A stretch of DNA of 62,267 nucleotides from a virus. Where the stretch lies: the IMG/VR virus record IMGVR_UViG_3300022902_000004, positions 1 through 62,267 of that record. One strand, given 5' to 3'. Shown here one piece after another: positions 1,199 through 29,637 of the stretch. The notes below the pieces were generated by a model. That model did no database searches. It was not told the DNA's origin and worked only from the letters and a program-made list of their open reading frames with translations. The stretch's first letter is position 1; each line of letters starts with the position of its first letter. Position numbers and translations under genes: made by a program.

Positions 1199-1272
1199 TG
1201 GAGCAGTATTTCGAATTCGAATCGAAACTATCACACAGGCAATGTAATGTGCTACCGTTACACCAATACTGC
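1199..1272 (-). tRNA. tRNA-Gly(GCC)
   Basis: TTACA-TTGCCTG-TGTGA; U73; CCA. Confidence 0.85.
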
Positions 1273-2235
1273 ATTGTTCTTTTTGCGGCGTTGCTTATGC
1301 CTGTCTTTCATTACGCAACTTTGACCACAGTATGTATATTTTACCGGAGCGCCGCATACTTTACACTTATTAAGTATCATATTATGTGGATTTCCATCGT
1401 ATAATGATATAAAATCATTTCCATGTTTCTTTTTGACATATGCCAAATATGATTCCATATCTTTTTGATACAAAACGCGTAATGCATGCGGGAAATCTCG
1501 TTTTTTAGCTTCAAATTGTTTGTTGGAAAAACCTTTGATTTCAACATATGAACCGTCCGGCAGCAAAAAATCCGGATAATACTTTCTTTGCTTGTTAAGG
1601 TATGAATATTCAAACCCAACCATGTTTCTTTCAAATTGAATCTTGTGATCCAAATTATAGATTATCCATGCCAGCTCCCAGCTTGAGTCACACCAATAGC
1701 CTTTATACCATCCTGTCTTACTAGACTTTCCTTTACGACCATGGCCGGTTCTTGGGCCACCTCGCCTTTTCTTCTTCTTTCCTTTGAGCGACTTAGCGAG
1801 GTTTCTTCGCCACGTACCAGAATTGACCATACATTTTCTGTCACAATATGATCTTTTCCTAGACGGTACATGCGTGATTGGTTTGTTGCAAGCCTTGCAT
1901 GGCGACGTTTTCATTTTCGAGCGTGTCTTGCCCTTTAGCGTCAACGATATTTTTTTGCGCGTTGACGCAGAACGTTTTGAGCGAACCTTATTCGTAAATG
2001 TGGCAACACAAGATCTTGAACAAAATTTGTTGTTCCCAGCAAATTGCTTTTCGCAGCAAGGACATGCCTTTTTTTGGGCTTTGTTAGCGCAGGATTTTTC
2101 ATGTCGACGGAACGTCATGACAGGAACGTCTTCACCGCAAACACTACAAGACTTTTTTCTATGTGCTGATGTTATATGAGAACCTAATGATCGACCTGAT
2201 TTGAACTTCTTTTTACATATTTTGCATGTGCTCAT
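1258..2235 (-). CDS. Zn-finger + PD-(D/E)xK (TnsA-N-like) putative homing endonuclease
   Basis: CxxC repeats; DSSWELAW...YYPDF...YVEIKG; stop codon inside tRNA-Gly. Confidence 0.8.
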   Translation of the reverse strand: MSTCKICKKKFKSGRSLGSHITSAHRKKSCSVCGEDVPVMTFRRHEKSCANKAQKKACPCCEKQFAGNNKFCSRSCVATFTNKVRSKRSASTRKKISLTLKGKTRSKMKTSPCKACNKPITHVPSRKRSYCDRKCMVNSGTWRRNLAKSLKGKKKKRRGGPRTGHGRKGKSSKTGWYKGYWCDSSWELAWIIYNLDHKIQFERNMVGFEYSYLNKQRKYYPDFLLPDGSYVEIKGFSNKQFEAKKRDFPHALRVLYQKDMESYLAYVKKKHGNDFISLYDGNPHNMILNKCKVCGAPVKYTYCGQSCVMKDRHKQRRKKNNAVLV

Positions 2236-2333
2236 GCGAATAAGTATCTATGAACTCAAAACTTGCGCGTTTGTTTCCTAAATTAGGTCAGTTTCCACAT
2301 TAGGAAACATATACAATTTAGGAAACTTGTGAA

Positions 2334-2603
2334 TCAGCGATCCCCGGGGAAGGCTGATGTGCCTGGATCATATTGAGAAAATGCATATTCAACATCATCC
2401 ATGGAAAAGCCCATTGTTTCCAACTCAGCACCAAAGGCGTTGATGTTGAGTTGAAGGCTTAATCCGTTCGAATCGAGTGCAGATCGTAAGGCATACCTCA
2501 AATCAGTGACCGAGCCAGATTCGGTCATGTTTTCGCCATCGACCAAGTCATCCTCGTATTGCTCACGAATCATCTTTCTTAGTTTTTGTTCTGAAATTTT
2601 CAT
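2334..2603 (-). CDS. Leader-family small acidic protein (putative internal head protein)
   Basis: MKISEQKLRKMIRE N-terminus. Confidence 0.65.
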   Translation of the reverse strand: MKISEQKLRKMIREQYEDDLVDGENMTESGSVTDLRYALRSALDSNGLSLQLNINAFGAELETMGFSMDDVEYAFSQYDPGTSAFPGDR

Positions 2604-2635
2604 TGCGCTTTCCTCTACTTGTCTCTTTGAATCAC

Positions 2636-3442
2636 TTAAAATGCAGTACCCGGGTTATCTTTGTCACCGTTGCCGGCATATTCTCCGAAACCAGAGCCTT
2701 TCTTTTTCTTCTTCTTACCGCCATACCCAGCAGCTTTGGATTCTTCTTTCCATCTTTGTTGGCGTTTTCTCAGCGCTTCGCGGTTTGCCGGTGTGTCTTG
2801 CTTCTTTCTTGCTGCAGCTTTATCAGCTTTTTCTTTATCACTCTTCGCAAGCGCTTCAGCTGCACTGTTTCTTGGGGTGTTTTCTTTCCAAAAGTTTACA
2901 AGAGCTGCGGTTTGCTCTTTGCTGGCCTTCTTCTTTACAGGCTGACGACTGGAAGACACCTTTTTATGATTGCTAGGCACAGGTCCCCAAACATCTGGCT
3001 TCGACTCAAGTGCCATAAACACACCGCGATTTGTTTTGATGTAAGCCCAACCAATATCTTGGCTTTTTCGGCTGCCTCGCCACGCTTTTACAAATTCAAG
3101 ATCTTTGCCCTTAAGGACATTGCGAACCATTTGCCGTAGCTTTTGCTCAGTTATTCTCAGTGTATTTTCCCTCTGTTTAGCTCTTCGATTCACTTCATCC
3201 TGAAGATTGTGCCATTCGGCTTGCCAAACTTGGAATTCATGGCTTCCGGTGCGCAGATTGGTAATATCAGGAATTAGCATTCCGTCATAGTCGCGAACGT
3301 TGTTGCGTTGACTCCAATGAAAGTTTATTTTGTCTGATCGAGTATTTGCTTCCCATTGTGCAGCTCGAATGTCTTCATCACTCCACACCGATAAATCTTC
3401 GCCGTATGACGGTGCCAATGTTTTGTCTACTTTGTTCCACAT
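2636..3442 (-). CDS. Hypothetical protein with internal leader-like motif
   Basis: Contains LRITEQKLRQMVRNVL; abuts upstream gene. Confidence 0.6.
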   Translation of the reverse strand: MWNKVDKTLAPSYGEDLSVWSDEDIRAAQWEANTRSDKINFHWSQRNNVRDYDGMLIPDITNLRTGSHEFQVWQAEWHNLQDEVNRRAKQRENTLRITEQKLRQMVRNVLKGKDLEFVKAWRGSRKSQDIGWAYIKTNRGVFMALESKPDVWGPVPSNHKKVSSSRQPVKKKASKEQTAALVNFWKENTPRNSAAEALAKSDKEKADKAAARKKQDTPANREALRKRQQRWKEESKAAGYGGKKKKKKGSGFGEYAGNGDKDNPGTAF

Positions 3443-4396
3443 TTAGTGTCCTCTACTTAGCAAATCGATCATCTCGTTTGCATCATCGAAATGTAATCCT
3501 CTGTTTGGCTTGCCTGCTGACTTCATTTTGAAGTTGAAGCTGTATGCTCGGCCGTCTTTACGACCTCCCGCCCCGGCGAACCTAATTTCAACCCCTACTG
3601 CACCTGGCGTATAAAGTGGAGCGCCGGTGCTGAGCGGGTCAAATCCCGGGATGAGAGTATACAGTTCACCAGAAACGACGTCCGGTCGGCCATGCCCAAC
3701 AAAGATGTACGATGTCTCTGCACCGTTCGGGCCTTGCTTGTTCGACATGATTTGTCGCATTTTTGCAGCCGAAATCTTTGCGCCCGTCCTTGGATTTGAG
3801 ATTTGTTTCGATCCTGGAGGAAGCGGGACGCTCCCAGGAGGAACCGGGAACTCAGCCTGGCGTTTTTCGTTTTGCTCATTGCGGATGACGAGGTAAAAAT
3901 CGCGGGCCTCCTGTGAGCCTCCACGATCAGGACCCAAATCATTACCGAATGATGTCTTCAAATCCCATGGCAACTTCCTATAAGGCTCAAAAATGCCAAC
4001 CAATTTTTCAAACTTTTCACGAACCGCCGGTGATGAATTCATGAAATCAATGATCGCCACGATTTCATCTTTGATATAACTATTTGGCTGTGGCCTGCCA
4101 ATAAACACGTCGCCATTTGGATCTGACGGGTCATAAATTAATGACTGGATTTGATCCTTCCTGACAGCTCCGAGAAATGCTTCATGGTCAAGCTTGACCT
4201 CGGCCGCTACGTCGATTCCATGCGCAGTGAAACCTAGGTCTGAGATCGAGCTGTTGTTACCCGCAGCAGGTGTGACTTCAAATCCCGCGCCAGAAAGTAC
4301 TGCTGACAATGTTTCTTCATATTCGAAGCCGCGTTCTCCTGCACCTTCCCATAGAAGCCGTGAAAAGCACTCTACTAAAAAACTGTCATTGCTCAT
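3443..4396 (-). CDS. Putative PD-(D/E)xK-fold protein with E-ending leader
   Basis: GFEYE...SDLGF...AAEVK spacing; N-terminal RLLWE; ATATTTA motif ~4423-4429. Confidence 0.5.
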   Translation of the reverse strand: MSNDSFLVECFSRLLWEGAGERGFEYEETLSAVLSGAGFEVTPAAGNNSSISDLGFTAHGIDVAAEVKLDHEAFLGAVRKDQIQSLIYDPSDPNGDVFIGRPQPNSYIKDEIVAIIDFMNSSPAVREKFEKLVGIFEPYRKLPWDLKTSFGNDLGPDRGGSQEARDFYLVIRNEQNEKRQAEFPVPPGSVPLPPGSKQISNPRTGAKISAAKMRQIMSNKQGPNGAETSYIFVGHGRPDVVSGELYTLIPGFDPLSTGAPLYTPGAVGVEIRFAGAGGRKDGRAYSFNFKMKSAGKPNRGLHFDDANEMIDLLSRGH

Positions 4397-4444
4397 ATCG
4401 GCCTACCTCGTTGGCGTAAGAATAAATATCGCCGTCGGCCCGTT

Positions 4445-5104
4445 TTATGCCAATCTTTTGAAAAGTTCCATGTCATCCTTGCAATACACACGCAGTTTAT
4501 CGAGCCAGGCGCTGGCTTTTACCTTGAATGTTCGGCGTGATGAGACCTTTTTTCCCTGCGATTTGCACACAACGCCCTCGAATGTCATGCCTGGAAGGGT
4601 TGAATTCCGGATGGATTCCAACAATTCCTGTGTAATTTCACCATGATAGAGAACGCGAGCGTAATCCGTGCCTTCTGACAGTCCTGCGTCTATACACAGA
4701 CGTACGAAATCCTCTGGCCCCATAAACCCCTTCGGATGAAGATTGAAGTCAATGAGGGCCAACCTGTGCTCCTCGTACTCGTGGTGTCCTGAGAATGATT
4801 TGTCCCCGTTGAACTCGAAAAAGCACAGCATTCGCTTATACTTTCGCTTCCGAAACTCTGCGTCAAGCTTTGGGCCAACGGTGCTATTCAAAATGCCTGA
4901 AATGTCGTCGTGCTTCAGCCACGGGTTCGAGTCGTCGAGGAGCGCGTTGCGCCTGCCATACTTGTAGAACCCGCGCTTGTGATTCCACTCAACCCGGATG
5001 TTGCTTCCGTCCAGTTTGTCAAAGACATACCAGTCATTTCCTTCTGGGATTCCGGCGCCCTTGGTCAATCCATTCATAAACTTCGTCGATGGATATGTTT
5101 TCAT
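4445..5104 (-). CDS. ATP-dependent ligase-fold (RNA ligase-like) protein
   Basis: Motif I DKLDGSN, FFEF, EGVVCK, FKVK. Confidence 0.7.
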   Translation of the reverse strand: MKTYPSTKFMNGLTKGAGIPEGNDWYVFDKLDGSNIRVEWNHKRGFYKYGRRNALLDDSNPWLKHDDISGILNSTVGPKLDAEFRKRKYKRMLCFFEFNGDKSFSGHHEYEEHRLALIDFNLHPKGFMGPEDFVRLCIDAGLSEGTDYARVLYHGEITQELLESIRNSTLPGMTFEGVVCKSQGKKVSSRRTFKVKASAWLDKLRVYCKDDMELFKRLA

Positions 5105-5421
5105 TCTTCACCTCGTTTCTCGAGATCCCGCCGGGTTTTCTCTCGCACAATTGTATGACGCAGATAGTCGAACGCTTTGAAGGCCGCCTCATCGGTGCCC
5201 TCTAAGCGTTCTAGCAAAATTGCATCTCGCCATCGCAAATCTTTCTCAAGACCTGCAGCGTCTCGCAACTTGAGGAACTTCTTCCGATACGCCATGAACC
5301 CGTGGTCACTCATTTTCTGCATCGCCTCCTTCGTGAGAAGACGAATTGTGATGCCACCGGTAACCCAAAGGCGACGTTGCCCGTTTCCTTGGTCCTTTCT
5401 AATCTGTAGTGTATTTTTCAT
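5101..5421 (-). CDS. Hypothetical protein
   Basis: ORF in operon, RBS AAGGA. Confidence 0.55.
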   Translation of the reverse strand: MKNTLQIRKDQGNGQRRLWVTGGITIRLLTKEAMQKMSDHGFMAYRKKFLKLRDAAGLEKDLRWRDAILLERLEGTDEAAFKAFDYLRHTIVREKTRRDLEKRGEE

Positions 5422-5436
5422 GTTTTCCTTTATTTT

Positions 5437-5808
5437 CTATCGGTCGTCTTCACACGCCGGTTTTTCGAAGCCTCGGCCCCACCAGGTTTCTTTCTCACGG
5501 AAGACTTTGCCGCCATCGTCGGCTCGGTAAAACAACAATGTCAACCAGGAAGCCGGGCGGTCAGGGGAAAGCCACAGTTGCAACGGGTTCGTCACAATCG
5601 ATGCAATAACCTGGACCGGATATACCAGCCCGCGACTATAGAGGCCCTCCAAAAAAGACCATGCAACGCATAGAACCGCCAGCGGGATGATGCAGAAGAA
5701 TGAGATAACGTATCCCACCACCTGAAACGACTGAAACAGTCGAAACCACCAGCCCGAGTGTTTCCACTTCCAGAACCACAACTCATAACGTGTTAGCTTC
5801 TTGGTCAT
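5437..5808 (-). CDS. Hypothetical membrane protein
   Basis: Hydrophobic segment; RBS AGGAGA. Confidence 0.55.
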   Translation of the reverse strand: MTKKLTRYELWFWKWKHSGWWFRLFQSFQVVGYVISFFCIIPLAVLCVAWSFLEGLYSRGLVYPVQVIASIVTNPLQLWLSPDRPASWLTLLFYRADDGGKVFREKETWWGRGFEKPACEDDR

Positions 5809-5902
5809 GATGCTCTCCTAAAACTGGATACACCAGCCATACGTCATGGCCATGGTGATAATACAACAAGCAATCAATGCACAAGTGTCTTTGTCAAACA
5901 TG

Positions 5903-6163: not shown

Positions 6164-6215
6164 CTCCGTCCTTAGGATTCTATTCTATCATAAGTGGGGT
6201 CATTTTACACGTTTC

Positions 6216-9458: not shown

Positions 9459-10166
9459 CTAGAATATGGAATGATTATTTATCCACTTCACGAACTTTTC
9501 AAATTCAGCTTCCACAAAAGCTTTGTTTTCCTTTGCAGGATCATCAACAATGTATGCGGTGTAACCACATTGTTCAATTTCGTGAAGTTTTATTTTATCT
9601 CTTGACTGTACTTGCTTTAGATTATGCCCTTCAAATAATTTTCTGCGATGCCAAACTCCATTCCACAAAACAGCCACCTTTTGGTTTGTCAGAATTACGT
9701 CTGCATCCCACTTGTTGAAAATAGGTTCGTTACAAAGAACGCCGCGCCATCTTCGTTGGCACATTTCGGCAAACCTGATTTCATTTTTTGAGCGTTTGGT
9801 TTCTTTTTGAGATTGAACTGATTTTCGGCCAGCCTCAGACGCACTCTTTTTGTTTCGTGCATAATTCGGATTCTTTGGATTGAATTGCCAACTATACCGG
9901 CACTTTGAACCGCATGTTTTTTGATTTCGCAATGACCATGAAACACGATATGAATCAGAGCAAACAGGACAAATCTTGTCAACAAACGAAACGCCTTTCG
10001 GGTTTCGTGGATCTCTTTTTTTGCCTTTTAATTTTATGCTAATTTTTTCGTTTATATTTTTTCTGTTTTTACTTGTTGAAAAAGAATGTGCGCAGTTTGA
10101 ACTACAAAACCTACCTGATCCGTATTTTCCATTATGACGATGACAGCATTTTTCACATATATTCAT
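9459..10166 (-). CDS. Zn-finger + Vsr/DUF559-like endonuclease
   Basis: CEKC..H.GKYGSGRFC N-terminus; SKNE..WDADV..VAVLWNG.WH..D..K. Confidence 0.7.
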   Translation of the reverse strand: MNICEKCCHRHNGKYGSGRFCSSNCAHSFSTSKNRKNINEKISIKLKGKKRDPRNPKGVSFVDKICPVCSDSYRVSWSLRNQKTCGSKCRYSWQFNPKNPNYARNKKSASEAGRKSVQSQKETKRSKNEIRFAEMCQRRWRGVLCNEPIFNKWDADVILTNQKVAVLWNGVWHRRKLFEGHNLKQVQSRDKIKLHEIEQCGYTAYIVDDPAKENKAFVEAEFEKFVKWINNHSIF

Positions 10167-10225: not shown

Positions 10226-10302
10226 TGGTACGGGTGGAGGGACTTGCACCCACTGTCTTCCAGATATAAGCTGGGAGCATTTACTGCTTATGCTACACCC
10301 GC
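10226..10302 (-). tRNA. tRNA-Ile(UAU), copy 1
   Basis: Loop CTTATAT; T-loop TGCAAGT; CCA. Confidence 0.8.
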
Positions 10303-10842: not shown

Positions 10843-10929
10843 TGGTGGTGGGACAAGGAATCGAACCTTGCTGCCCTTTCGGGAACGGAGTTACAGTCCA
10901 TCGCAAACACCAGTTTGACCATCCCCACC
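10843..10929 (-). tRNA. tRNA-Tyr(GUA)
   Basis: ATGGA-CTGTAAC-TCCGT; variable arm; ACCA. Confidence 0.9.
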
Positions 10930-11442
10930 AATTGTTCGTGTGAAATAAAATTGTTTCCAGTCGTCGCCTACGTAATCTTCAAAACTTATTAATTCGCTCG
11001 GTTTCACAACCCCTGAGTGTACCAAACGATGACAGTTTGGGCAAATATGTGACAAGTTTGAATGCAGGTTTAGCCCTCCTTTGCAAACTGGAATGATATG
11101 ATGTAAATCGCAACTTACGCCTTCAACAAACCAACCACACCTTGAGCATGGCAGTCCCATTCGAATCAAAATCTTCTTTGCGGTTCGTGAACTTACATTA
11201 TAAATTGTTGCAAGCGCTGCTTTTCGTGAATACACGGCATGTTTTTTGGCGACTTTACGTAGATTGCGCTCTTCTTTTGTATATCCTTTTTTAAGAGCTA
11301 AACTAACACGAGTGTTAATGTCAGAACGTTTTGCTTTTGTTGAAAAACCTCTCGCACACTTTTGATTGCAAAAACGGCCTGTGCCATACAATCCATCATG
11401 TTCTTCTTCACACATTTCACATATTTTCATAAAGTTCTCCAA
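10891..11442 (-). CDS. HNH endonuclease
   Basis: CSRCGW..DLHHIIP..GG.N..SNL..ICPNCH; stop codon in tRNA-Tyr anticodon loop. Confidence 0.85.
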   Translation of the reverse strand: MENFMKICEMCEEEHDGLYGTGRFCNQKCARGFSTKAKRSDINTRVSLALKKGYTKEERNLRKVAKKHAVYSRKAALATIYNVSSRTAKKILIRMGLPCSRCGWFVEGVSCDLHHIIPVCKGGLNLHSNLSHICPNCHRLVHSGVVKPSELISFEDYVGDDWKQFYFTRTIGGDGQTGVCDGL

Positions 11443-12571: not shown

Positions 12572-12645
12572 TAGAGCCTCTAGAGGGATTCGAACCCACA
12601 TTTTCTGATTACGACACAGAAGTACTGCCGTTATACTATAGAGGC
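12572..12645 (-). tRNA. tRNA-Thr(CGU)
   Basis: Loop GTCGTAA; CCA not encoded. Confidence 0.8.
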
Positions 12646-12834
12646 GGCTTTTAGTCTTTCAATTTCTGCATGGAGTTCCGCGACTTCAAGGTTTCTAGCC
12701 TCGAGTTGAATATTCAGGAGTACGTTTACCTGCCTGAGCTCTTCAAGCTCTCGTGCCGGTGAATACCCGATCGGTGTCGGCAGGATATTCGTTTGCGTTG
12801 TTTTAGCAAGATTCGGGTTTTTTCTATTTCTCAT
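12631..12834 (-). CDS. Small coiled-coil protein
   Basis: Overlaps endonuclease 3' end; stop codon inside tRNA-Thr. Confidence 0.4.
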   Translation of the reverse strand: MRNRKNPNLAKTTQTNILPTPIGYSPARELEELRQVNVLLNIQLEARNLEVAELHAEIERLKAASIV

Positions 12835-13621
12835 TTGCTACGCCGAAATTAGGGTTTCGACTTTCATACATTGTCTTGAAATCTTTTCCATACTTTGCGA
12901 TGACATAATCAAAAATCGGCTGCATTTCATTTCCATAAAGTACCTTGATTGGACCTTTGAACTGACTTAGCTTTGCTTTCCATTGCTCTGTCACGTATCC
13001 TTTGATTTCAACGATTTCATTGTCAACAATGAAGTCTGGTGAATACTTTCGTTTTTTACCTTCGAGCTCATATTCATATGCCTTTTTGTTTCGGGCAATC
13101 TGAATGTTATGCTCCACACAGTAAATCACATATGCTAATTCCCATGTACTATCACAAAAAATTCCTTTGTACCATCCGGAATGCCCTCTCCCTCCGCCTC
13201 GTTGGTATCCACCCCTTGGTGACGTCAGGTGCGATTTCTTGACCGCGGCTGATAATCTTGCTCGGTAACTTGGATCCTGGCATTGGCATTTTTTTGAACA
13301 GAACTTTTTGACTGATGTTACTTTCACCGTGAACGACTTATTACATGTTTTGCATTTTCGTTTCTCTCTCGCTGTTTTCAATTTGCCCTTTAGGGTCTTC
13401 GCTGTTTTCCTCTTTGAGGCTGCTGTTCTTTTCCTACCCCGCAGGTTGAATGATGCAGCGCATGATTTTCCGCAAAACTTTGCTCGCCCATAAATGGCTT
13501 TCTTGCATTTAGGGCACTTATGTTTCTGGGCCGGATTGGAGTGGCATGCCTTTTCATGTCGTGATAGACATGACACATCAATCTTTCTTGAACAATACAC
13601 ACATGGTTTTTTCGCTCTCAT
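12824..13621 (-). CDS. Zn-finger + PD-(D/E)xK putative homing endonuclease
   Basis: GWYKGIFCDSTWELAY...YSPDF..IVEIKG. Confidence 0.8.
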   Translation of the reverse strand: MRAKKPCVYCSRKIDVSCLSRHEKACHSNPAQKHKCPKCKKAIYGRAKFCGKSCAASFNLRGRKRTAASKRKTAKTLKGKLKTAREKRKCKTCNKSFTVKVTSVKKFCSKKCQCQDPSYRARLSAAVKKSHLTSPRGGYQRGGGRGHSGWYKGIFCDSTWELAYVIYCVEHNIQIARNKKAYEYELEGKKRKYSPDFIVDNEIVEIKGYVTEQWKAKLSQFKGPIKVLYGNEMQPIFDYVIAKYGKDFKTMYESRNPNFGVANEK

Positions 13622-13676
13622 GTGTATAAGTATGCTCGTAAATGTATTCTAACCTAAAAACCTTTCGTTCGATTGT

Positions 13677-16273: not shown

Positions 16274-16365
16274 TGGCGGAAGTGGGCGGAGTCGAACCCC
16301 CAAGGCCCCGCAAAGGGCTCGTCGCTTTTCAAGAGCGGTGCAGTCACCTGTCTGCTTGCACTTCC
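16274..16365 (-). tRNA. tRNA-Ser(UGA)
   Basis: Loop CTTGAAA; long variable arm; GCCA. Confidence 0.85.
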
Positions 16366-17090
16366 GTTGTTTCAATTTTTATGATGTCACTTTCAAATAA
16401 GACATTGAGCTTATAAGGAAAATCCCTCCACTTACATCGATCTCTTTCGGTTTCATAACCTTTTATCTCAATGAACACACCAGCTTCAGGAAGGTAAAAA
16501 TCAGGAATGTATTTTCTTGTTCTTCCATTTTCATCGACATATTCAAAACTTTTTGAGTTTCGTTGCCAATCAATTTTCTGATTGTCCAATAGCACAGCAT
16601 ACCTTTTCTCGTATGTGCTATCAAGCCAAACTCGACCGGCAATATTAGATTCGTGCCAGGAACCTTTTCCTACACCCGATCCTGTTCTATACCCACCGGC
16701 ATTGGGATTTTTCTTCATCGTTTCAGATATCTTCGCTCGTCGCAAAATTTCTGCTTCGGGAGTTGATGCCTTGCCGGTGGATTTTCCTTTGAGTGCCGCT
16801 GAAATCTTGGCTCGGGTTGAATCGGGAACCGGTAAGCCTTTGTTCCATCCTCGTCCTTTTCCTGCATGTTTTCCTCCTCGACGGTGGGCACCTGGGCCTT
16901 TGCCATCGCAGATTTCGACATGCCTTTGTCGACGTGAATGAATATGCTTAGAGCATTTTGGGCATGTCCACGACTTTCCTCTGGCGTTTTTACTGGCCCG
17001 GGTTGTCCCGATACCACGACACACTTTTTGGTGATTTGTTAGCCCTGCTTTTGATTTTAGCTGGCGATTACATTTGTTGCACGTTTTCAT
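16344..17090 (-). CDS. NUMOD3-like + PD-(D/E)xK putative homing endonuclease
   Basis: TRAKISAALKGK repeats; LDSTYE..YIPDFYL..FIEIKG; stop codon in tRNA-Ser. Confidence 0.8.
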   Translation of the reverse strand: MKTCNKCNRQLKSKAGLTNHQKVCRGIGTTRASKNARGKSWTCPKCSKHIHSRRQRHVEICDGKGPGAHRRGGKHAGKGRGWNKGLPVPDSTRAKISAALKGKSTGKASTPEAEILRRAKISETMKKNPNAGGYRTGSGVGKGSWHESNIAGRVWLDSTYEKRYAVLLDNQKIDWQRNSKSFEYVDENGRTRKYIPDFYLPEAGVFIEIKGYETERDRCKWRDFPYKLNVLFESDIIKIETTEVQADR

Positions 17091-19712: not shown

Positions 19713-20561
19713 TTAGCTTATGAAATCCTTCATATATTTCTTTATAAATCTACGAAGTTGCGTGTGACTAATGCCCAATTCTGTCGCCACCGCCGACCGT
19801 GAGCCCCACTTTGTTGTGTCAGTTAGTTTTATTAACTTTTGGCGTTTTATTACTTCACTTTGATGTAATTGCGACCATGATCCTGCAACCTGCCTAATAG
19901 GCTTTGACTTTTTTTGTTTAACTGGCCTAGGTTTCTTTTGCTCATTAACCAGTTTCCCATCACGCTCGAGTATCCATCTAATGATGTGGGCACGTTTATA
20001 GTTGCCTCCACCGGAAAGGCCAACGCTTTTCAAGGCTTTTGAAATAGTTGGTTGATTTAATATCGCGTTTTTGAGTTTTTCATCGCTAACCTTTTTGGTG
20101 TTAGTTCCACGATTTCTTCCTCGCCATGTAGGCGTTTGTGAATGGCAGTTTGGGCACAGCAATCGAATGTTTTCTAATCGATTGTCGGTGTTGTCACCAC
20201 TAATGTGATCCAGCTCCAGGCTTAGCTTTCCTGACATCCATTCGTCAATTCCGCATGTTTGACATTTATATTCTGAATATCCTAATTTGACTAGAACATT
20301 CTTTACATAACCAGTTGAACATGTCGAGTTTTCTATAAAAATTTCTGTATTTGGATCCTTTAGGATTTTTCCTCGGCTCCATGCGCGTTTATTTTTTGAT
20401 GATTCAGGTAATTCTCTATACTTTGGTGTTGCCCCTGAGCAATGGCCTTTATGGGCAGACATCGCATACACGTTTTTATATGTATTTCCACAAATTGGGC
20501 AATCACATGGTATTGATTTTCTTTCCTTTCTCGTTTTTCTCATTGGCACACGCTCCAACAT
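19713..20561 (-). CDS. HNH endonuclease
   Basis: CQTCG..LELDHISGDNTDNRLENIRLLCPNCH; start re-called downstream of tRNA-Leu. Confidence 0.85.
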   Translation of the reverse strand: MLERVPMRKTRKERKSIPCDCPICGNTYKNVYAMSAHKGHCSGATPKYRELPESSKNKRAWSRGKILKDPNTEIFIENSTCSTGYVKNVLVKLGYSEYKCQTCGIDEWMSGKLSLELDHISGDNTDNRLENIRLLCPNCHSQTPTWRGRNRGTNTKKVSDEKLKNAILNQPTISKALKSVGLSGGGNYKRAHIIRWILERDGKLVNEQKKPRPVKQKKSKPIRQVAGSWSQLHQSEVIKRQKLIKLTDTTKWGSRSAVATELGISHTQLRRFIKKYMKDFIS

Positions 20562-20585: not shown

Positions 20586-20672
20586 TAGTACCAGGGACGG
20601 GACTTGCACCCGCATGACCTAGGTCGATGGTTTTTAAGACCATTGTGTATAACTAAATTCCACCACCCTGGC
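20586..20672 (-). tRNA. tRNA-Leu(UAA)
   Basis: ATGGT-CTTAAAA-ACCAT; T-loop TGCAAGT. Confidence 0.85.
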
Positions 20673-21245: not shown

Positions 21246-21361
21246 ATTCAATTTTCAAAGAAACCGTTTGGAGCGCTTGACTCCTTGGTTCCAAGGTTTG
21301 CACGCTGTCGTACAACTCCTTATGAATCCATTATACCACGATTTGATGCTCTTTACACTTA
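21246..21361 (-). repeat. 116-bp promoter + hairpin + boxA-like leader, copy 1
   Basis: Near-identical to 28063-28178; TTCTTTGAAAATTGAAT. Confidence 0.8.
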
Positions 21362-21370: not shown

Positions 21371-22402
21371 CTAATTTCGGGTTCCTGCCTGAAACTCTTG
21401 AATGTAGTGTGTACGGGCAGCCGAAGCCACCTTCTTCGCAACATTTTTCCACTCAAAGGTCTCAGCCTCTTCAATCTCAACTGCACATTCACGCTGGACG
21501 TCTTGACATACCCACCTGAGGTAGTCGCCGACACTTCGCATGTTTGGCTCGAGACCAAGTTCAGCCAGGTATTCGAAACCTTGCTCCAAGCGTCGGGGTG
21601 TCACAGCAAACTCGAGGAACTCCTGGACGTTGGCAAGCTCTTCTGGCGTTGCCTGTACAGTTTTCTTGCTCTTCTGAGTCTTATGCTTCTCACCTTTCGT
21701 CTTGAAGAACAGGTCGGAGTTACCAAGTTGGTCACCAAGCGGAGTCCAGACTAATCCTTCTCCCATGCCTGCCAGCCCGAACAATGCGCCCCATGGGCAC
21801 AAAACCTCAACAGCTAGCGTCTTCTTCGTTGCCTCTTCTGCTGCCTTTGTGACAGAGTCAAGATCATCGAGGTCGACTTCAAGCTCAGCAGAACCTGCCT
21901 TCAGGATGCTGTAGATACTCACATCTTCGTAGTAGTCATGAAAGTTGAAAACCTCGAGGTAACGAGACTTCTCCCCTTCAGTGACAGCAGCCGCAAAGAT
22001 GACCCACTGTTTTACTGGGAGCTGGTTGATCGCCATTCCTTTTTGAACGCCGTTGCCAATCCACTCACCAAACAATGTCAATGTTGCGTCTTCATGCAGG
22101 TTGTACGCCACCCGAAATTGCTTTTCAAGTCCTCGAATGGATACCTGTACTGCAACATGGTGGACGAATGCAGCGAAACCGTTGTTATCATTTTGAAGTG
22201 ACAACACTGTGTTACGACTCTGAGGCACTAATCCCTCTTTCGTGCACGCGACACCGGCATTTGTTCCATGGAGCTTCACAGTTCCTTTGAACTTCGTCAC
22301 ACCTCGAACTTTGTATCGCTCAGGCACCTCGGGATCCTTGTTAACCTTTCGAACGTACCGAGACACCTGATATAAGGCGTCAACATGTGTATACTTTTTC
22401 AT
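21371..22402 (-). CDS. RNA ligase, Rnl2-like
   Basis: TVKLHGTN, QSRN, FGEWIG, GEGLVW, FKTKGEKH. Confidence 0.75.
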   Translation of the reverse strand: MKKYTHVDALYQVSRYVRKVNKDPEVPERYKVRGVTKFKGTVKLHGTNAGVACTKEGLVPQSRNTVLSLQNDNNGFAAFVHHVAVQVSIRGLEKQFRVAYNLHEDATLTLFGEWIGNGVQKGMAINQLPVKQWVIFAAAVTEGEKSRYLEVFNFHDYYEDVSIYSILKAGSAELEVDLDDLDSVTKAAEEATKKTLAVEVLCPWGALFGLAGMGEGLVWTPLGDQLGNSDLFFKTKGEKHKTQKSKKTVQATPEELANVQEFLEFAVTPRRLEQGFEYLAELGLEPNMRSVGDYLRWVCQDVQRECAVEIEEAETFEWKNVAKKVASAARTHYIQEFQAGTRN

Positions 22403-23258: not shown

Positions 23259-23978
23259 TCAATCTAGGTTTTCAAAGTTTGCGCACGAAGACTCCAAAAA
23301 TTGCTGTAAATCACCCATGCGGAATAGTTGATCTAGATCTTCTTTGAAGGCAATCCCTAACTTTACGTCAAGTTGCCCTTTGATACATTTCATTTTCTTT
23401 TTTGCTGCAGGTGAAAAGTAACCCTTTATTTCGATAAATACGTCGAAATCGTTTAGGTATATATCAGGATGATATCGTCTTGTGATACCATTCTCATATT
23501 TTAGAACATGACCTGACGACCATTGAATTAGCTTATCATTGCAAAATTCTGCGAAAGACTTTTCCCATGTTCCCCTCAAGGTAAATGTTTCGCCATTTAG
23601 ATTTGCTACGTTGAAATATTTTACATGTTGAAAACTTCCAAACCCGGGCTCATTCATTTTATCGGATTGAATTTTGCTTAGTTTTTCTTTTGTTTCTCTT
23701 GAAAGTTTTCTGTTCTGTTTTTGTAACCTTCCTGACAAAAATCCTTTCTTTCTTTTTTCATTCGCCCCAAGCTTGATTGCTTTTATTTCTTCAGGTGACT
23801 TATTTCTAAGCCAGTTTTTCCCATAACATGGGTTTAATTTCCCTTTTCTGGCCCGAAGATAGTCTAACGACACGGCGTTTTTATTGTTTTTGCACCTTAC
23901 TTGGTGTTGACGTTGTGAATTTGCATTTTTACATTGCTTATTGCAAAACTCACACAAAAACTTTTCTTGTTTTTTCAT
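23259..23978 (-). CDS. Zn-finger + PD-(D/E)xK putative homing endonuclease
   Basis: CEFC..H..RC; RGTWE..YHPDIYL..FIEIKG. Confidence 0.8.
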   Translation of the reverse strand: MKKQEKFLCEFCNKQCKNANSQRQHQVRCKNNKNAVSLDYLRARKGKLNPCYGKNWLRNKSPEEIKAIKLGANEKRKKGFLSGRLQKQNRKLSRETKEKLSKIQSDKMNEPGFGSFQHVKYFNVANLNGETFTLRGTWEKSFAEFCNDKLIQWSSGHVLKYENGITRRYHPDIYLNDFDVFIEIKGYFSPAAKKKMKCIKGQLDVKLGIAFKEDLDQLFRMGDLQQFLESSCANFENLD

Positions 23979-24033: not shown

Positions 24034-24110
24034 TGGTACGGGTGGAGGGACTTGCACCCACTATCTTCCAGATATAAGCTGGGAGCATTTACTGCTTATG
24101 CTACACCCGC
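24034..24110 (-). tRNA. tRNA-Ile(UAU), copy 2
   Basis: One-nucleotide difference from 10226-10302. Confidence 0.8.
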
Positions 24111-24193: not shown

Positions 24194-24220
24194 ATTTGTT
24201 GTGCAGCTTGTGCTGCGTGT

Positions 24221-24298: not shown

Positions 24299-24311
24299 AT
24301 AGTTTGTTTTT

Positions 24312-24782: not shown

Positions 24783-24852
24783 GGTGTCTCCCGGGCTCAT
24801 ACTAAATATCGGCCCAAACGACCTTACACTTCTATTATACCACGATTGCAAT

Positions 24853-25164
24853 CTATTTACACGTTGCTAACGCTGATTTGATCGCGGCGATGTCCCGAGT
24901 CGCATTTTCAATGATTGACTCATTCGTTTTTCTGTAAATGCCTGACACATATGTTTCCCAATCTTCTGGGCTCATTGTCGTGTCTTGCGCCAATTCAGGT
25001 GACCATCCCGTCGGTAAACGGTGACCATCCAGTGTTATGAATTTCAATGGACCCGATGCCGGCCAGCTTTTCAGGAACACTGTTGGCGAGACGCCTAGGC
25101 GATCGATATCGACCCCGGTGTTCTTTGAAATTTCAGTCAACACAAAATGTTTTTCTACGGCCAT
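24853..25164 (-). CDS. Hypothetical protein
   Basis: RBS AGGAG. Confidence 0.55.
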   Translation of the reverse strand: MAVEKHFVLTEISKNTGVDIDRLGVSPTVFLKSWPASGPLKFITLDGHRLPTGWSPELAQDTTMSPEDWETYVSGIYRKTNESIIENATRDIAAIKSALATCK

Positions 25165-25183
25165 AATCTTCTCCTGTTATTTA

Positions 25184-25270
25184 GGGTCGCCAAGCTCGGA
25201 GTCGAACCGAGACGCTCATTGAAAAGCCCAGCCCCTCAAGCTGGTGGATATGCCATTCTCCTATTAGGCG
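25184..25270 (-). tRNA. tRNA-Leu(GAG)
   Basis: CCAGC-TTGAGGG-GCTGG; acceptor mismatches. Confidence 0.75.
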
Positions 25271-25278
25271 ATGTCTAA

Positions 25279-25441
25279 TCCGGGAAGCAGGATTCGAACC
25301 TGCGAACGGCTTCGCAGCGGCAGGTAATTAGTCTGCTTGCTAATCCGTCACTGATAGCATATGATTGCCCGACGTCAATTATATTGTATAGCAAAAAGTA
25401 TGTTATCTATCAGTTGCCTTAAGCCTCTCAGCCATTCCCGG
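25279..25441 (-). ncRNA. Class II tRNA-like RNA with ~49-nt anticodon insertion and enlarged variable arm
   Basis: CCGGGAA/TTCCCGG; ACTGATAG/CTATCAGT enclosing insert; perfect T-arm. Confidence 0.65.
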
Positions 25442-25498
25442 TCGGAATTGAACTGGCATTTTGGTTCATGCCGGTGATCAATCCCGCGTTTTGTTTAG

Positions 25499-25586
25499 AA
25501 CGGAAAGTGGGATTCGAACCCACGGGGTAGCTAGTATCCCACGATTGTTCATAAATCGTTGCCTTAAGCCTCTCAGCCATTTCCGT
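25499..25586 (-). ncRNA. Class II tRNA-like RNA with 6-bp anticodon stem (paralog of 25279-25441)
   Basis: Identical D-arm TGGCTGAGAGGCTTAAGGCAAC; ACGATT-TATGAAC-AATCGT. Confidence 0.6.
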
Positions 25587-25595
25587 GTTTTGTTG

Positions 25596-25670
25596 TGGTA
25601 CGCCCGGGTGGAGTTGAACCACCGCCTAATCCTTATCAGAGATTTGTACTCACCATTATACTACGGGCGT
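25596..25670 (-). tRNA. tRNA-Ile(GAU)
   Basis: AATCT-CTGATAA-GGATT; ACCA. Confidence 0.9.
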
Positions 25671-26305
25671 GCATCGTAAAGATCAATGTAGTCTTTACTG
25701 TAGTTTTGTGTGACATAATTTATGTATTGCGACATTTCTTTTTTGTACAAGACAGTAATTTCATGTGGAAATGCCTTCAGTTTTTCTTCAAATTGCTTTG
25801 TTTTGTAACCTTTGATTTCTATGTAATGATTATCAATTTTGAAGTCAGGATAGTACTTTCGTGTGAAACCTTTATACTGATACTCAAACCCAGATAAGTT
25901 TCTTTCGAAAGCAATTCCTTTATCAATATGAAAAATGACCCAGGCAAGCTCCCAGCTTGAATCGCACCAATAGCCTTTGTACCATCCGGATTTTCCAACG
26001 CCGGCGCCTTTTCTTGGCCCGCCCGTTTTTCCTTTTAATGAAGTACTAATGTTTTTGCGCCAATTTGAATGTTCTTTGTAATGCTGTCGACAATAACCGG
26101 TCATCGTTTGATGATGAAGTTTTTTATTGCATATCAAGCAATTGCGAATCTTATCCTTGTTGAAGTTGTATGGTCGTCCATCAGGGCCCAAAAAGTTTTT
26201 ATACTGCGCCAAATGTGTTGCTCGACAAGAGTCAGAGCAATATACCGCTGTATCGTATCTTGGGACAAACTTTTTTCCGCAACATTTGCATATATTTTCA
26301 TTCAT
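25661..26305 (-). CDS. Zn-finger + PD-(D/E)xK putative homing endonuclease
   Basis: GWYKGYWCDSSWELAW..YYPDF..YIEIKG, close paralog of 1258-2235; stop codon in tRNA-Ile. Confidence 0.8.
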   Translation of the reverse strand: MNENICKCCGKKFVPRYDTAVYCSDSCRATHLAQYKNFLGPDGRPYNFNKDKIRNCLICNKKLHHQTMTGYCRQHYKEHSNWRKNISTSLKGKTGGPRKGAGVGKSGWYKGYWCDSSWELAWVIFHIDKGIAFERNLSGFEYQYKGFTRKYYPDFKIDNHYIEIKGYKTKQFEEKLKAFPHEITVLYKKEMSQYINYVTQNYSKDYIDLYDARP

Positions 26306-26350
26306 GTTTATAACTATCTGCAAATTCTAAAAGCCATATCAGGCGGAGTA

Positions 26351-26457
26351 AATTAGGTGTGTGAGGGTGCGAGCCTCAGGGCGGCGTATACTTCCTTGTT
26401 CAATACCATATCGATGGTTGGACTCGAACCAACATCCCCACTTATGCACATCTAATT
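26351..26457 (-). ncRNA. Circularly permuted tRNA-like / YrlA-like RNA
   Basis: Terminal stem AATTAG/CTAATT enclosing T-arm, short hairpin, then D-like arm. Confidence 0.45.
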
Positions 26458-26533
26458 GGCTTACAAGGCGGGATTTGAACCCGCGACACCGAAGACCGTC
26501 GCCCTCAGCTCTACCTGACTGATTTACATGTAA
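26457..26533 (-). ncRNA. tRNA-like RNA with non-standard anticodon loop
   Basis: GAGGGC-GACG-GTCTTC arm; normal T-arm; GCCA. Confidence 0.5.
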
Positions 26534-26643
26534 GCAAGCAGTTTTCTGTCAAAATGCTTAGGACTCATCAACCTGTAGACCACCACGTTACCGATGGACC
26601 TGACGCTCGCAGCGCGCCTGTTGCACTTTGCAACTTCCTACAA

Positions 26644-26721
26644 TGGTCTGCGCGGTCGGATTCGAACCGACGACCACTCGAATCCAAATCGAGTATTCTG
26701 ACCAGGCTGAACTACGCACAG
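26644..26721 (-). tRNA. tRNA-Pro(UGG)
   Basis: CTCGA-TTTGGAT-TCGAG; ACCA. Confidence 0.9.
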
Positions 26722-26761
26722 ATATTGAGCAGTTTATTTGACCATACTCAGGTCTCTTTAC

Positions 26762-26837
26762 GGGTCTGGGTAACAGGATTCGAACCTGCATCTCCGTGCC
26801 CCAAACACGGTGCTAGACCAACCTCAGCTATACCCAG
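26762..26837 (-). tRNA. tRNA-Pro(UGG)
   Basis: CCGTG-TTTGGGG-CACGG. Confidence 0.85.
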
Positions 26838-27063
26838 GCAAGACCAGCGCCCCATCCACGCGCTGACCGACGATTTTCATTTATTTGGTAGGGTAACCAG
26901 ACTCTTTGCCCAAATGAAATCTTTCCATTATTGAAGAACCCGCCCCATCATTCGCGGTCCTTACTCTCACAACATATGATTCTTCTCTTTCATCGTATTA
27001 TTTTTGCATCGCTGAAGAATTATTGTGCCTTACCATTGCTCATGGGCTCATCACCCCTGGCGA

Positions 27064-27717
27064 TTATTTGAACTTCATCTTTCTTCCTTTTTTCCAACCT
27101 TTGTTGAGGAATGAATCAAGTTCGTTTTTGTCGATTTTCATGGACCTCTTTTCTTTTAGATTGTAAATCCAAACTTTTCCGTATTGGGAGTTTCCTTTTC
27201 CCCGTTGATGAACCGCATTTGCGGCACCAATCTTTTTCTTTGTTGCTTCTTTGTGCTTTCTTCCTGTCCAATCAAAAGGTTTTAGTTTTCCTTCTTTATG
27301 GAGCCGTTTGAAGCTCTCAGAGCAACTTTGTTTCTTACGAGCAACCCATTCTGGATTTGACCAATTTGCCTCGTTCATGGCAATGGCTGCTTTTTTGTTC
27401 TTTTCTTTTCGGGTTAGCTCGTTGTTGTTGATGCGTTCCCACCCATCACCATGGCCGCCGAGAGACAAGTTGTATACGTCCTCCCGCAAAAGAAACGATT
27501 CATTAACGACTTCCTTTTCCTTTTCATACATTTCTGCAGAGTTCTTTAGAAAGTGAACATACTCCTTTGTGAAGTTTTCGATACCATGTTTTTCGATGGC
27601 CCTAGAAATCAACACGCCAGAACCCATATAATGGTCATTAAGATTTTTCGTCTTATGACAACCAATGTATATTTTGCCGTTCGTCCTATTCGTTATTTTG
27701 TAAATCGTGTAGTACAT
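27064..27717 (-). CDS. GIY-YIG homing endonuclease (Seg-like, NUMOD3)
   Basis: TIYKITN..KIYIG..YMGSG; HKEATKKKIG. Confidence 0.9.
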   Translation of the reverse strand: MYYTIYKITNRTNGKIYIGCHKTKNLNDHYMGSGVLISRAIEKHGIENFTKEYVHFLKNSAEMYEKEKEVVNESFLLREDVYNLSLGGHGDGWERINNNELTRKEKNKKAAIAMNEANWSNPEWVARKKQSCSESFKRLHKEGKLKPFDWTGRKHKEATKKKIGAANAVHQRGKGNSQYGKVWIYNLKEKRSMKIDKNELDSFLNKGWKKGRKMKFK

Positions 27718-27787
27718 TTTATGTTTTCTATCTTGTATAATGATAAATAGGTTCGAATCCCAGTTACCACAAAATAAAAATTCGAAG

Positions 27788-27863
27788 AGCGAGTAGCGGG
27801 ATTCGAACCCAGCACGATGATCTGATTGGAAATCAGATGGCCTACCTCATGGCCCTTACCCGC
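27788..27863 (-). tRNA. tRNA-Gly(UCC)
   Basis: TCTGA-TTTCCAA-TCAGA; U73. Confidence 0.85.
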
Positions 27864-27874
27864 ATGTTCTTGAA

Positions 27875-27979
27875 AATGACCGGCACATATTTACTAGCTT
27901 TTAGGTACCTAAGTCGCGTTCAACTGTGAGTTATAGTATCTTCTATTTTATACTATTGATTTATTCAGTGCCGATCATT
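27875..27979 (-). ncRNA. Putative ~105-nt structured RNA between tRNAs
   Basis: 12-bp terminal stem AATGATCGGCAC/GTGCCGGTCATT. Confidence 0.35.
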
Positions 27980-28055
27980 GGTGCGCTCGGTAGGCATCGA
28001 ACCTACGCATCTCCTGGTTAAGAGCCAGGTGCTGTCCCTCTCTAGCTTCGAGCGC
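27979..28055 (-). tRNA. tRNA-Lys(CUU)
   Basis: CCTGG-CTCTTAA-CCAGG; ACCA. Confidence 0.9.
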
Positions 28056-28062
28056 ATCTACT

Positions 28063-28178
28063 ATTCAATTGTCAAAGAAACCGTTTGGAGCGCTTGACCC
28101 CTTGGTTCCAAGGTCTGCACATTATCGTGCAACCCCTTATGAATCCATTATACCATGATTTTACGTTCTTTACACTTA
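28063..28178 (-). repeat. 116-bp promoter + hairpin + boxA-like leader, copy 2
   Basis: TTCTTTGACAATTGAAT immediately before tRNA-Lys(CUU). Confidence 0.8.
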
Positions 28179-28430
28179 GTTTGCGCACTTATGCAAACAA
28201 ACTTTAGGAACTTTATTGTCTCGGTTTGAGAACTTTATTGTCTTGGCTTTTCTTTGACGTGCACGCCCCAGTCCAAATCGCCTGGGATCGTGCCGTGATC
28301 CTTTTTGCACGCGTCAAACATAAGTTTCATGGCTTTAACTGCATCAGCAATTTTTGTAGCCTGACCGTTATGGTTCCATGACTTGTTTAACTTCGATGCG
28401 ATTTTCCACGTAAACATTCTTCTCTCCTAA

Positions 28431-28652
28431 GTCGTCCGGGGCTCCCATCTCATCAAGGTCCCGATGCTGGTGATCAAACCAGCATCTGACGCTGAGCTTA
28501 AAGGCCTTTGTCATGAGGTGGGTAGCCTATTGTCTATCCGCATCTGGGGCGGAACTCAACAACGTTTTGTTTCTCGTTATGGAAGGAAGTCCCAGGCGAC
28601 TTATTTCAGTCATATCTGGGCTTTTTATAGCACCCGGGTCCTCTCGGACAAC
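28431..28652 (-). ncRNA. Putative ~220-nt multi-stem ncRNA
   Basis: GTTGTCCG/CGGACGAC termini; CCCACCTCAT/ATGAGATGGG; GATGCTGG/CCAGCATC. Confidence 0.4.
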
Positions 28653-28673
28653 GCAAGCTTCCTCGTTTTGTTT

Positions 28674-28748
28674 TGGTACCCGGTGAGGGATTCGAACCCC
28701 CGACATTTGGTATGTAACACCAACGTTCTACCGCTGAACTAACCGAGC
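28674..28748 (-). tRNA. tRNA-Val(UAC)
   Basis: TTGGT-GTTACAT-ACCAA; ACCA. Confidence 0.9.
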
Positions 28749-28755
28749 GATCAGA

Positions 28756-28826
28756 ATGAAGCATCAGGACTTGAACCTGAGTCTCTGGGTGTATGTGCCC
28801 AGCGCGTGACCACTAGCTATACTTCA
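28756..28826 (-). ncRNA. tRNA-like RNA with 8-nt anticodon loop
   Basis: CTGGG-CACATACA-CCCAG; TGAAGTA/TGCTTCA; T-arm. Confidence 0.5.
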
Positions 28827-28935
28827 CTCTTTATTCTTGTTACGTAAAGAACCTGCATGCTTCGAAACTAGCAGACGACCTTGCTTATGTGTTAGCTCAC
28901 ACCTGGTTTTAGCATTGATGTGATGCAAGATATTG

Positions 28936-29024
28936 CGGAGCTGGGGACAGGATTCGAACCTGCGTTGTGGTTGCCCAACCGGATTACAAATCCGGTGCCT
29001 TCGACCATCTCGGCTCACCCCAGC
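28936..29024 (-). tRNA. tRNA-Thr(UGU) with long variable arm
   Basis: CCGGA-TTTGTAA-TCCGG; TTG-GGCAACCA-CAA extra arm. Confidence 0.8.
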
Positions 29025-29637
29025 GTCGTTTTTTCGTTACGAGCAACCTGTGTGCTCTAAAATAATTTCCTCCTTTTGGAGTAAGTCCCAGTGATAAGAG
29101 TGCTTGTCGGACAGTCGAATGTGATTCTAACGCAACAAGAAACTCTGCGTCAGTCGTTCGTTTTCGTATGCCATCCTTTCTTTTATTTCGACCTCGCCAT
29201 GTCTCGGTTAGAGCATGACAATTTGGACACAGAAGTTCCAAGTTTTCTCTATCATTATTTTGGTTGTTTCCATCAATATGTTCAATTTCTAATGGAATCA
29301 ACTCATCTTGCCATTTTTTGTTTTTGCAACGACGACAAGCATGCGCTTGCTCATCGAATATTCGCATACGCTGGCGCTTGGGTGGTAAACTATCGAAAGG
29401 TAGGTCGACATAATGTGCTATCCTATTTTCTCGATTTGTTTTTCCGCCTTTCACTGCACCTGCGCGTTGCGCATTAGTAGACGTGGTTCGCACCCGTCCT
29501 GTAAGCGATTGAGAAACCTTTTTATTGATTTCCTCCCTACTTTGTTTTGTTGAAAAACCTCTTGCGCACTTGGCACCACAGAATCGTCCGCTGCCATATT
29601 CACCTATATGCGTATCATTACAATTTTCACAATTCAT
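28984..29637 (-). CDS. HNH endonuclease
   Basis: LEIEHIDGNNQNNDRENLELLCPNCH; stop codon in tRNA-Thr anticodon loop. Confidence 0.85.
   Translation of the reverse strand: MNCENCNDTHIGEYGSGRFCGAKCARGFSTKQSREEINKKVSQSLTGRVRTTSTNAQRAGAVKGGKTNRENRIAHYVDLPFDSLPPKRQRMRIFDEQAHACRRCKNKKWQDELIPLEIEHIDGNNQNNDRENLELLCPNCHALTETWRGRNKRKDGIRKRTTDAEFLVALESHSTVRQALLSLGLTPKGGNYFRAHRLLVTKKRRWGEPRWSKAPDL

Follow-up and report, generated by a model that had tools for sequence, protein, structure and literature searches.

Homing endonuclease genes that terminate inside tRNA genes in the tRNA array of a 318-kb phage

Introduction

The closest described counterparts of the genes considered here are found in the tRNA regions of phages T4 and T5. 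The T4 segB gene is co-transcribed with tRNAs, and its product, which has tRNA genes as its targets, drives the inheritance of the tRNA region; maturation of the tRNA-Arg was proposed to cut the mRNA just after the last sense codon, ahead of the stop, lowering expression, and the F-Tfl genes of T5 were suggested to be controlled likewise through processing of the primary transcript (Brok-Volchanskaya et al., 2008; PMC2330249). Here we analyse a related arrangement in IMG/VR virus record IMGVR_UViG_3300022902_000004, a 318,267-bp phage genome in one contig, whose first 62 kb (positions 1 to 62,267, the whole stretch that we analysed, hereafter the window) carry a tRNA array in which five homing endonuclease genes end inside the tRNA gene that follows. 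We argue that this layout is probably, in the main, a by-product of where such genes insert and how they decay.

RNase P cuts at position +1 of a tRNA, and ribosomes stalled on a non-stop mRNA are rescued by transfer-messenger RNA (tmRNA) in trans-translation. In mitochondria, where tRNAs punctuate a polycistronic transcript, their excision sets the 3' end of the upstream mRNA. Excision there, together with polyadenylation, completes a stop codon, whereas in the window phage it would remove one.

As in the window, T5 carries free-standing nuclease genes within its tRNA array and on the tRNA strand, namely hegC and hegD (HNH; F-Tfl) and T5.069 (T5orf172 domain), and their coding sequences extend 14, 23 and 24 nt into the following tRNA gene in the RefSeq annotation; one of the tRNA genes so overlapped carries a pseudogene flag. 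T5 differs in being a 122-kb siphovirus with no member of the PD-(D/E)xK family described below. T4 SegB is 42% identical to the product of window open reading frame (ORF) 27064-27717 and its stop adjoins tRNA-Arg, but the T4 RefSeq record has that stop outside the tRNA, 5 nt upstream of it, and the window homolog, unlike segB, does not abut a tRNA. Literature searches for explicit nuclease stops inside tRNA genes returned the SegB discussion only. The stop-in-tRNA layout has already been seen in T5 and T4, and the silencing idea has been in the literature since 2008. What this phage adds to the precedent is a PD-(D/E)xK family of tRNA arrays, a nuclease-linked exchange of a tRNA allele, and a phage tmRNA.

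Geometry of the junctions

The five overlapping nuclease ORFs (183-325 amino acids, with catalytic motifs intact and dozens of homologs) run 10-41 nt into the next tRNA, and in a survey of all frames they are the window's only ORFs longer than 150 amino acids to run across the 5' end of a tRNA. A sixth, short ORF behaves in the same way. ARAGORN, the ORF list and the junction sequences place all six stops where a sequence-only reading of this DNA had put them:

1258..2235, minus strand: PD-(D/E)xK gene, 325 amino acids, N-terminal zinc fingers; TAA at nt 13-15 of tRNA-Gly(GCC) (1199..1272, minus strand; ARAGORN; Rfam 50.5 bits), 15 nt overlap
10891..11442, minus strand: HNH gene, C-terminally truncated, likely start ATG at 11430; TAA at nt 37-39, in the anticodon loop, of tRNA-Tyr(GUA) (10843..10929, minus strand; ARAGORN and Infernal), 39 nt overlap
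12631..12834, minus strand: 67-amino-acid ORF of no assigned function; TAA at nt 13-15 of tRNA-Thr(CGU) (12574..12645, minus strand; ARAGORN and Rfam), 15 nt overlap
16344..17090, minus strand: PD-(D/E)xK gene (PHROG endonuclease, 3e-14); TGA at nt 20-22 of tRNA-Ser(UGA) (16274..16365, minus strand; ARAGORN and Infernal), 22 nt overlap
25661..26323, minus strand: PD-(D/E)xK gene, modelled with AlphaFold; TAG at nt 8-10 of tRNA-Ile(GAU) (25596..25670, minus strand; ARAGORN; Rfam 67.8 bits), 10 nt overlap
28984..29637, minus strand: HNH gene; TAA at nt 39-41, in the anticodon loop, of tRNA-Thr(UGU) (28937..29024, minus strand; 88 nt with a 14-nt variable arm; ARAGORN and Rfam), 41 nt overlap

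The same reading counted five such genes among ten array endonucleases, which holds with nine ORFs that have nuclease-domain evidence and ORF 9459-10166 as the tenth. At all six junctions ARAGORN and Infernal/Rfam agree independently on the tRNA 5' end; owing to their long variable arms, tRNA-Tyr and tRNA-Ser(UGA) find their full-length match in the tRNA-Sec model, which belongs to the same clan.

The tRNAs themselves offer abundant stop triplets. Among 525 array tRNAs, such a triplet occurs at nt 8-10 in 51% (U8-A9-G10, read as TAG) and at nt 13-15 in 26%, and 62-81% of frames entering a tRNA meet a stop within it, depending on the frame. The overlap was 10 nt in seven and 15 nt in nine of the 31 overlapping junctions that we collected, and all three frames occur among them. 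In alignments, the residues that the nucleases take from the tRNA form unconserved tails past the catalytic domain.

Histories of individual junctions

Two related loci cover parts of the array: L101 (13.8 kb, about 80% identical) is syntenic with the window from 38507 to 24265, and L106 (9.8 kb) from 15584 to 4404. They reveal presence/absence polymorphism of array nucleases at three loci. The overlap of ORF 10891 with tRNA-Tyr has the clearest history. Its ortholog in L106 encodes 255 amino acids with HNH and NUMOD3 domains and stops 20 nt before tRNA-Tyr, whereas the alignment with the window copy ends at residue 171, after which that copy enters the tRNA; it lacks the last ~88 amino acids and a stop of its own. 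By this sequence comparison the overlap is evidently the product of a deletion of about 270 nt that took NUMOD3 and the stop, and thus reflects decay rather than design. The short ORF that precedes tRNA-Thr(CGU) overlaps by 15 nt in the window and its L106 homolog by 23 nt, in different frames, and ORF 12824 is missing from L106.

A stop inside the tRNA is kept in one lineage comparison and not in another, since the ortholog of ORF 25661 in the relative L007/L101 (92% amino acid identity) has the same 10-nt overlap of tRNA-Ile and that of ORF 10891 has none. The junctions of ORF 1258 with tRNA-Gly and of ORF 16344 with tRNA-Ser had no close relative covering either; locus searches with the single proteins of ORFs 16344 and 10891 gave one distant match each, and an RNA-ligase query gave distant relatives only, of which L102 was not syntenic.

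At the site of ORF 28984, nuclease and tRNA appear to have been exchanged together. The gene is missing from L101, where a canonical 76-nt tRNA-Thr(UGU) directly follows tRNA-Lys(UUU), and the window has in its place the nuclease together with the 88-nt tRNA-Thr(UGU), a tRNA that cannot be aligned with the L101 version. Homology returns exactly at the tRNA 3' end, so that the two were in all appearance swapped as one unit. The claim that each nuclease is locked to a tRNA as a mobile cassette thus finds a positive case here, in a single comparison of this kind, and a contrary one at tRNA-Met, where the tRNA is the same and the upstream ORF differs: in L101 an HNH gene continues across a 15-nt leader common to both loci and takes the TAG at nt 8-10 of the tRNA as its stop, and in the window an unrelated ORF stops 13 nt upstream of that tRNA. 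In other phage arrays, too (L001/L079, L070/L075, L011, L082), some tRNAs that are normally short (Thr, Lys, His) have versions with a long variable arm. We considered the 88-nt tRNA-Thr(UGU) as a recoded tRNA-Ser and dropped the idea, given the similar long-arm tRNA-Thr genes in the arrays of other phages.

Nucleases compared with other tRNA-adjacent ORFs

The frequency of overlap was compared between nucleases and their non-nuclease neighbours among ORFs of at least 60 amino acids whose ends fall from -60 to +14 nt relative to a tRNA 5' end. Counts are of ORFs overlapping the tRNA and of ORFs stopping just before it:

Independent IMG/VR loci: nucleases 16 and 15, others 9 and 20; odds ratio 2.4, p=0.12
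T5 annotation: nucleases 3 and 0, others 1 and 8; p=0.018
IMG/VR and T5, window excluded: nucleases 19 and 15, others 10 and 28; odds ratio 3.5, p=0.016
Everything, window included: nucleases 24 and 16, others 11 and 33; odds ratio 4.5, p=0.002

For nucleases, overlap with a tRNA is about 2-4 times more frequent than for the remaining array ORFs. An excess, whose absence would have counted against the sequence-only reading, is seen as a moderate enrichment on borderline evidence, from an odds ratio of 2.4 (p=0.12) in the IMG/VR loci to 3.5 (p=0.016) once T5 is added. Overlap is found outside the nucleases too, in a SpoU methylase gene and several small ORFs, and it involves 9 of the 29 abutting non-nuclease ORFs from IMG/VR; conversely, in the independent loci 15 of the 31 nucleases that abut a tRNA terminate 1-14 nt ahead of it.

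Origin and consequences of the layout

We consider it probable that the stop-in-tRNA layout is chiefly the footprint of insertion at tRNA boundaries, genome compaction and C-terminal decay of the nucleases. Homing endonuclease genes would have colonised the array of the 318-kb phage wedged against tRNA 5' ends, and their ORFs would terminate inside the tRNA because the frame has no stop before it; such a frame would continue to the first in-frame stop triplet, supplied by conserved tRNA nucleotides as TAG from U8-A9-G10, as TAA or TAG at nt 13-15, or else within the D or anticodon loop. ORF 12824, which extends 11 nt into the protein gene that follows, argues for a by-product origin, alongside the deletion in ORF 10891, the unconserved tails and the overlap of the small ORF in differing frames. 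Several observations weigh on the other side. The overlap of ORF 25661 is retained in its ortholog, and a tmRNA is encoded by the phage itself (genome 299618-299977, beyond the window; 319-678 of locus L087; ARAGORN; RF00023, 92 bits), which fits a genome that produces non-stop messages. The overlap excess of nucleases (window excluded, T5 included) is expected under selection as well, although it does not separate the readings, because silencing selection and recent, decaying insertions both predict enrichment.

Even as a by-product, the layout may affect expression. The geometry places each nuclease stop 3' of the RNase P site on what, from the common strand, would be the same transcript. 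Cleavage at tRNA +1 would then strip the nuclease mRNA of its stop codon, ribosomes would stall at the cut 3' end and be rescued by tmRNA, and untagged nuclease would come only from unprocessed transcripts; each transcript would yield a mature tRNA or a complete nuclease message, not both, and nuclease output would be kept low. From established RNase P and trans-translation biology, such a consequence for the nuclease mRNAs likely occurs to some degree. That it is the reason for the layout, with the stop kept in the tRNA by selection so that RNase P maturation yields non-stop mRNA, its products are tagged and degraded, and a potentially toxic nuclease is held in check, seems to us unlikely. 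Such a governor would draw on the shared strand, by which nuclease mRNAs must run into the tRNA; on the tmRNA and the enrichment; on the fact that tRNA-abutting nucleases with a detected nuclease domain overlap without exception (5 of 5 in the window, 3 of 3 in T5); and on a published proposal (PMC2330249) that segB and the F-Tfl genes of T5 are controlled in precisely this way. It is difficult to reconcile, however, with a stop position that varies between orthologs, as for ORF 10891, whose overlap stems from a domain-removing deletion, with the near half of abutting nucleases that stop before the tRNA, with the roughly 30% of abutting non-nuclease ORFs that overlap too, and with unconserved tRNA-encoded tails. 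Moreover, the functional contrast between overlap and near-stop may be small, because an ORF ending just before a tRNA would likewise be left with an unprotected 3' end after the RNase P cut.

A somewhat different account, which we regard as possible if doubtful, is that the nuclease targets the resident tRNA gene and travels with a divergent, cleavage-resistant allele, so that the ORF end and the tRNA 5' half form one mobile unit. The joint replacement at tRNA-Thr(UGU) suggests as much, as do the preference of the PD-(D/E)xK family for tRNA-Ser (see below) and the recognition of a tRNA T-arm motif by T4 SegB (PMC2330249). Yet replacement of the tRNA is seen in just one comparison of nuclease-plus and nuclease-minus loci, at tRNA-Met the tRNA is kept with homology from ~15 nt before it, and the nuclease tree clusters weakly by tRNA identity. 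Joining the two accounts, such that a selected governor operates in large phages (RNase P stripping the stop, phage tmRNA tagging the product) while the nuclease travels with a recoded, cleavage-immune tRNA allele and tRNA supply, nuclease dosage and spread of the element are coupled, strikes us as quite unlikely. Wrongly placed tRNA boundaries, or spurious ORFs, could in principle mimic the pattern, and some ARAGORN calls are odd, such as an 8-nt anticodon loop at 28754-28827; with two programs concurring on all six tRNA 5' ends, and with ORFs of this length, catalytic integrity and number of homologs, an artefact is hardly credible.

The footprint that we favour also illustrates the selfish life of nucleases in phage tRNA arrays, in which they would sit flush with tRNAs, borrow a stop from conserved tRNA bases, degenerate through deletions and be able to carry a replacement tRNA allele with them. 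With its five junctions of this kind and a tmRNA of its own, the phage would be a good system for testing the RNase P non-stop idea.

The nuclease families of the array

By their sequences, the array nuclease genes are free-standing homing endonuclease genes of three families, with five PD-(D/E)xK, three HNH and one SegB-like GIY-YIG gene in the window. Besides the overlapping genes listed above, the set comprises:

9459..10166, minus strand: 235-amino-acid ORF with an N-terminal domain like that of the HNH genes; its stop lies 10 nt ahead of tRNA-Cys
12824..13621, minus strand: PD-(D/E)xK gene; stops within ORF 12631-12834
19713..20561, minus strand: HNH and helix-turn-helix gene, not tRNA-abutting
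23259..23978, minus strand: PD-(D/E)xK and NUMOD3 gene, not tRNA-abutting
27064..27717, minus strand: GIY-YIG and NUMOD3 gene; ends 226 nt before tRNA-Pro

The five PD-(D/E)xK ORFs (1258, 12824, 16344, 23259 and 25661) are paralogs with 27-44% identity (tblastn), and E125, P159-D160 and E169-x-K171 are invariant in 44 sequences of the family. They give PHROG 'endonuclease' matches and weak Pfam and PDB matches to T7 endonuclease I at the E...PD...ExK motif, where the family profile matches T7 endonuclease I with E=0.007. The AlphaFold (AF2) model of ORF 25661 has a pLDDT (predicted local distance difference test) score of 85. Its C-terminal domain, compared by VIA, matched TnsA (Z 6.2), Bax1 (6.1), I-Bth0305I (5.9) and Vsr (5.2), as well as VRR-NUC and Hjc (listed range Z 3-6.2); these Z values are middling, all below 8, yet the matches are uniformly restriction-endonuclease-like folds. 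A Foldseek search of the model against the PDB gave no match at E<=0.001. The predicted PD-(D/E)xK assignment of the array family, with the motif set on an alpha-beta-beta-beta-alpha-beta core, rests on motif and fold together. The array genes thus resemble the phage-intron enzyme I-Bth0305I and the core of T7 endonuclease I in fold and motif, but the similarity is remote, and they differ in being free-standing, in their N-terminal zinc-finger or NUMOD modules and in their specialisation to tRNA arrays. Our searches found no characterised member of this family.

The HNH assignments of ORFs 10891, 19713 and 28984 come from Pfam PF01844 (32.6 bits for ORF 10891, 24.8 and 22.2 bits for the other two; cut-off 21.4). 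ORF 27064 scores 20.3 bits for GIY-YIG, just below the cut-off of 22.6, and 19 bits for NUMOD3, and matches T4 segB with 41.8% identity over amino acids 1-216, its full length (tblastn). The likeness of ORF 9459 to the HNH genes is limited to the N-terminal domain, and no nuclease domain was detected in it; Pfam, PHROG and NCBIfam searches gave no match for ORFs 9459, 17146, 22529 and 24312.

A short motif, GATACTTAT, found at 2247, 11455, 17102, 20569 and genome position 283805, with a variant, CATACTTAT, at 13633, stands 4-20 nt upstream of nuclease start codons. It precedes five array nucleases of two families and one distant HNH paralog, is found seven times on the minus strand and never on the plus strand, and may be a nuclease-specific promoter or the end of a cassette. 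For HNH gene 19713 the likely start is near 20561-20540, downstream of the motif, and is preferred over an ATG at 20615 inside tRNA-Leu.

Recurrence in other phages

A profile of the PD-(D/E)xK family gave at least 225 matches in IMG/VR, 80 of which were retrieved and reduced to 64 non-redundant loci; an alignment of nine sequences (A1) was too divergent for this locus search, and a narrower one (A2) was used. At least one tRNA is present in 60 of the 64 loci, with a median of 7 tRNAs in about 5 kb, and the family is therefore a tRNA-array family: large, and nearly confined to the tRNA arrays of large phages. Relative to the next same-strand tRNA, its stop codons fall as follows:

Inside the tRNA: 12 of 64
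1-7 nt before it: 6 of 64
8-50 nt before it: 6 of 64
Further off, or no tRNA: 40 of 64

Where members of the family abut a tRNA, the tRNA is tRNA-Ser in 11 of 27 junctions, against a baseline of 7.8% of array tRNAs (p=3e-6; IMG/VR loci L007-L086). The catalytic-domain tree is poorly resolved. Full-length relatives of ORF 28984 also reside in tRNA arrays, one of them overlapping tRNA-Met by 10 nt, and homologs in huge phages and Lak phages do so as well. The recurrence of the pattern in both the HNH and the PD-(D/E)xK families, first noticed from the window alone, extends to many other phages.

The tRNA array and neighbouring genes

All 39 tRNAs that ARAGORN finds in the phage genome fall within the window on the minus strand, and Rfam adds an intron-bearing one at 29691-29821, for an array of roughly 40. 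Megablast with 24 kb of the window as query gave no match among 50,697 phage records, and no close relative was found in that annotated collection; scans of the array for sigma-70 promoters and terminators gave results not clearly above those of shuffled sequences. Two further small ORFs end inside tRNA genes:

29800..30057, minus strand: 85-amino-acid ORF; ends 22 nt inside the intron-bearing tRNA-Lys(UUU) 29691-29821
38567-38770: small ORF; ends 54 nt inside tRNA-Leu(CAA)

The tRNA-Lys(UUU) gene, missed by ARAGORN (Rfam 56 bits), is split by an insert of ~58 nt and is 99% identical in L101. The tRNA-like gene at 28754-28827, to which ARAGORN gives the anticodon 'cata', has a counterpart in L101 (7298-7371) that is called tRNA-Phe(GAA). 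Two tRNA-Ile copies of the UAU type, 14 kb apart at 10226-10302 and 24034-24110, are 98.7% identical. The tag peptide of the phage tmRNA reads ANDNSEYSYAQAA.

RNA-repair genes are abundant near the array, with three RNA ligases, a Thg1-like 3'-5' polymerase and an RlaP nucleotidyltransferase forming a cluster at the following positions:

21371-22402, 40300-41301, 42266-43417, 45307-46500 and 46901-47941

A GroEL gene is found at 60194-61807. Copies of a 116-nt repeat at 21246-21361 and 28063-28178, 90% identical (also at 30936-30977), stand just upstream of tRNA-Asn and tRNA-Lys, and the repeat is present in L101; the copies probably act as a repeated leader or promoter for tRNA sub-operons.

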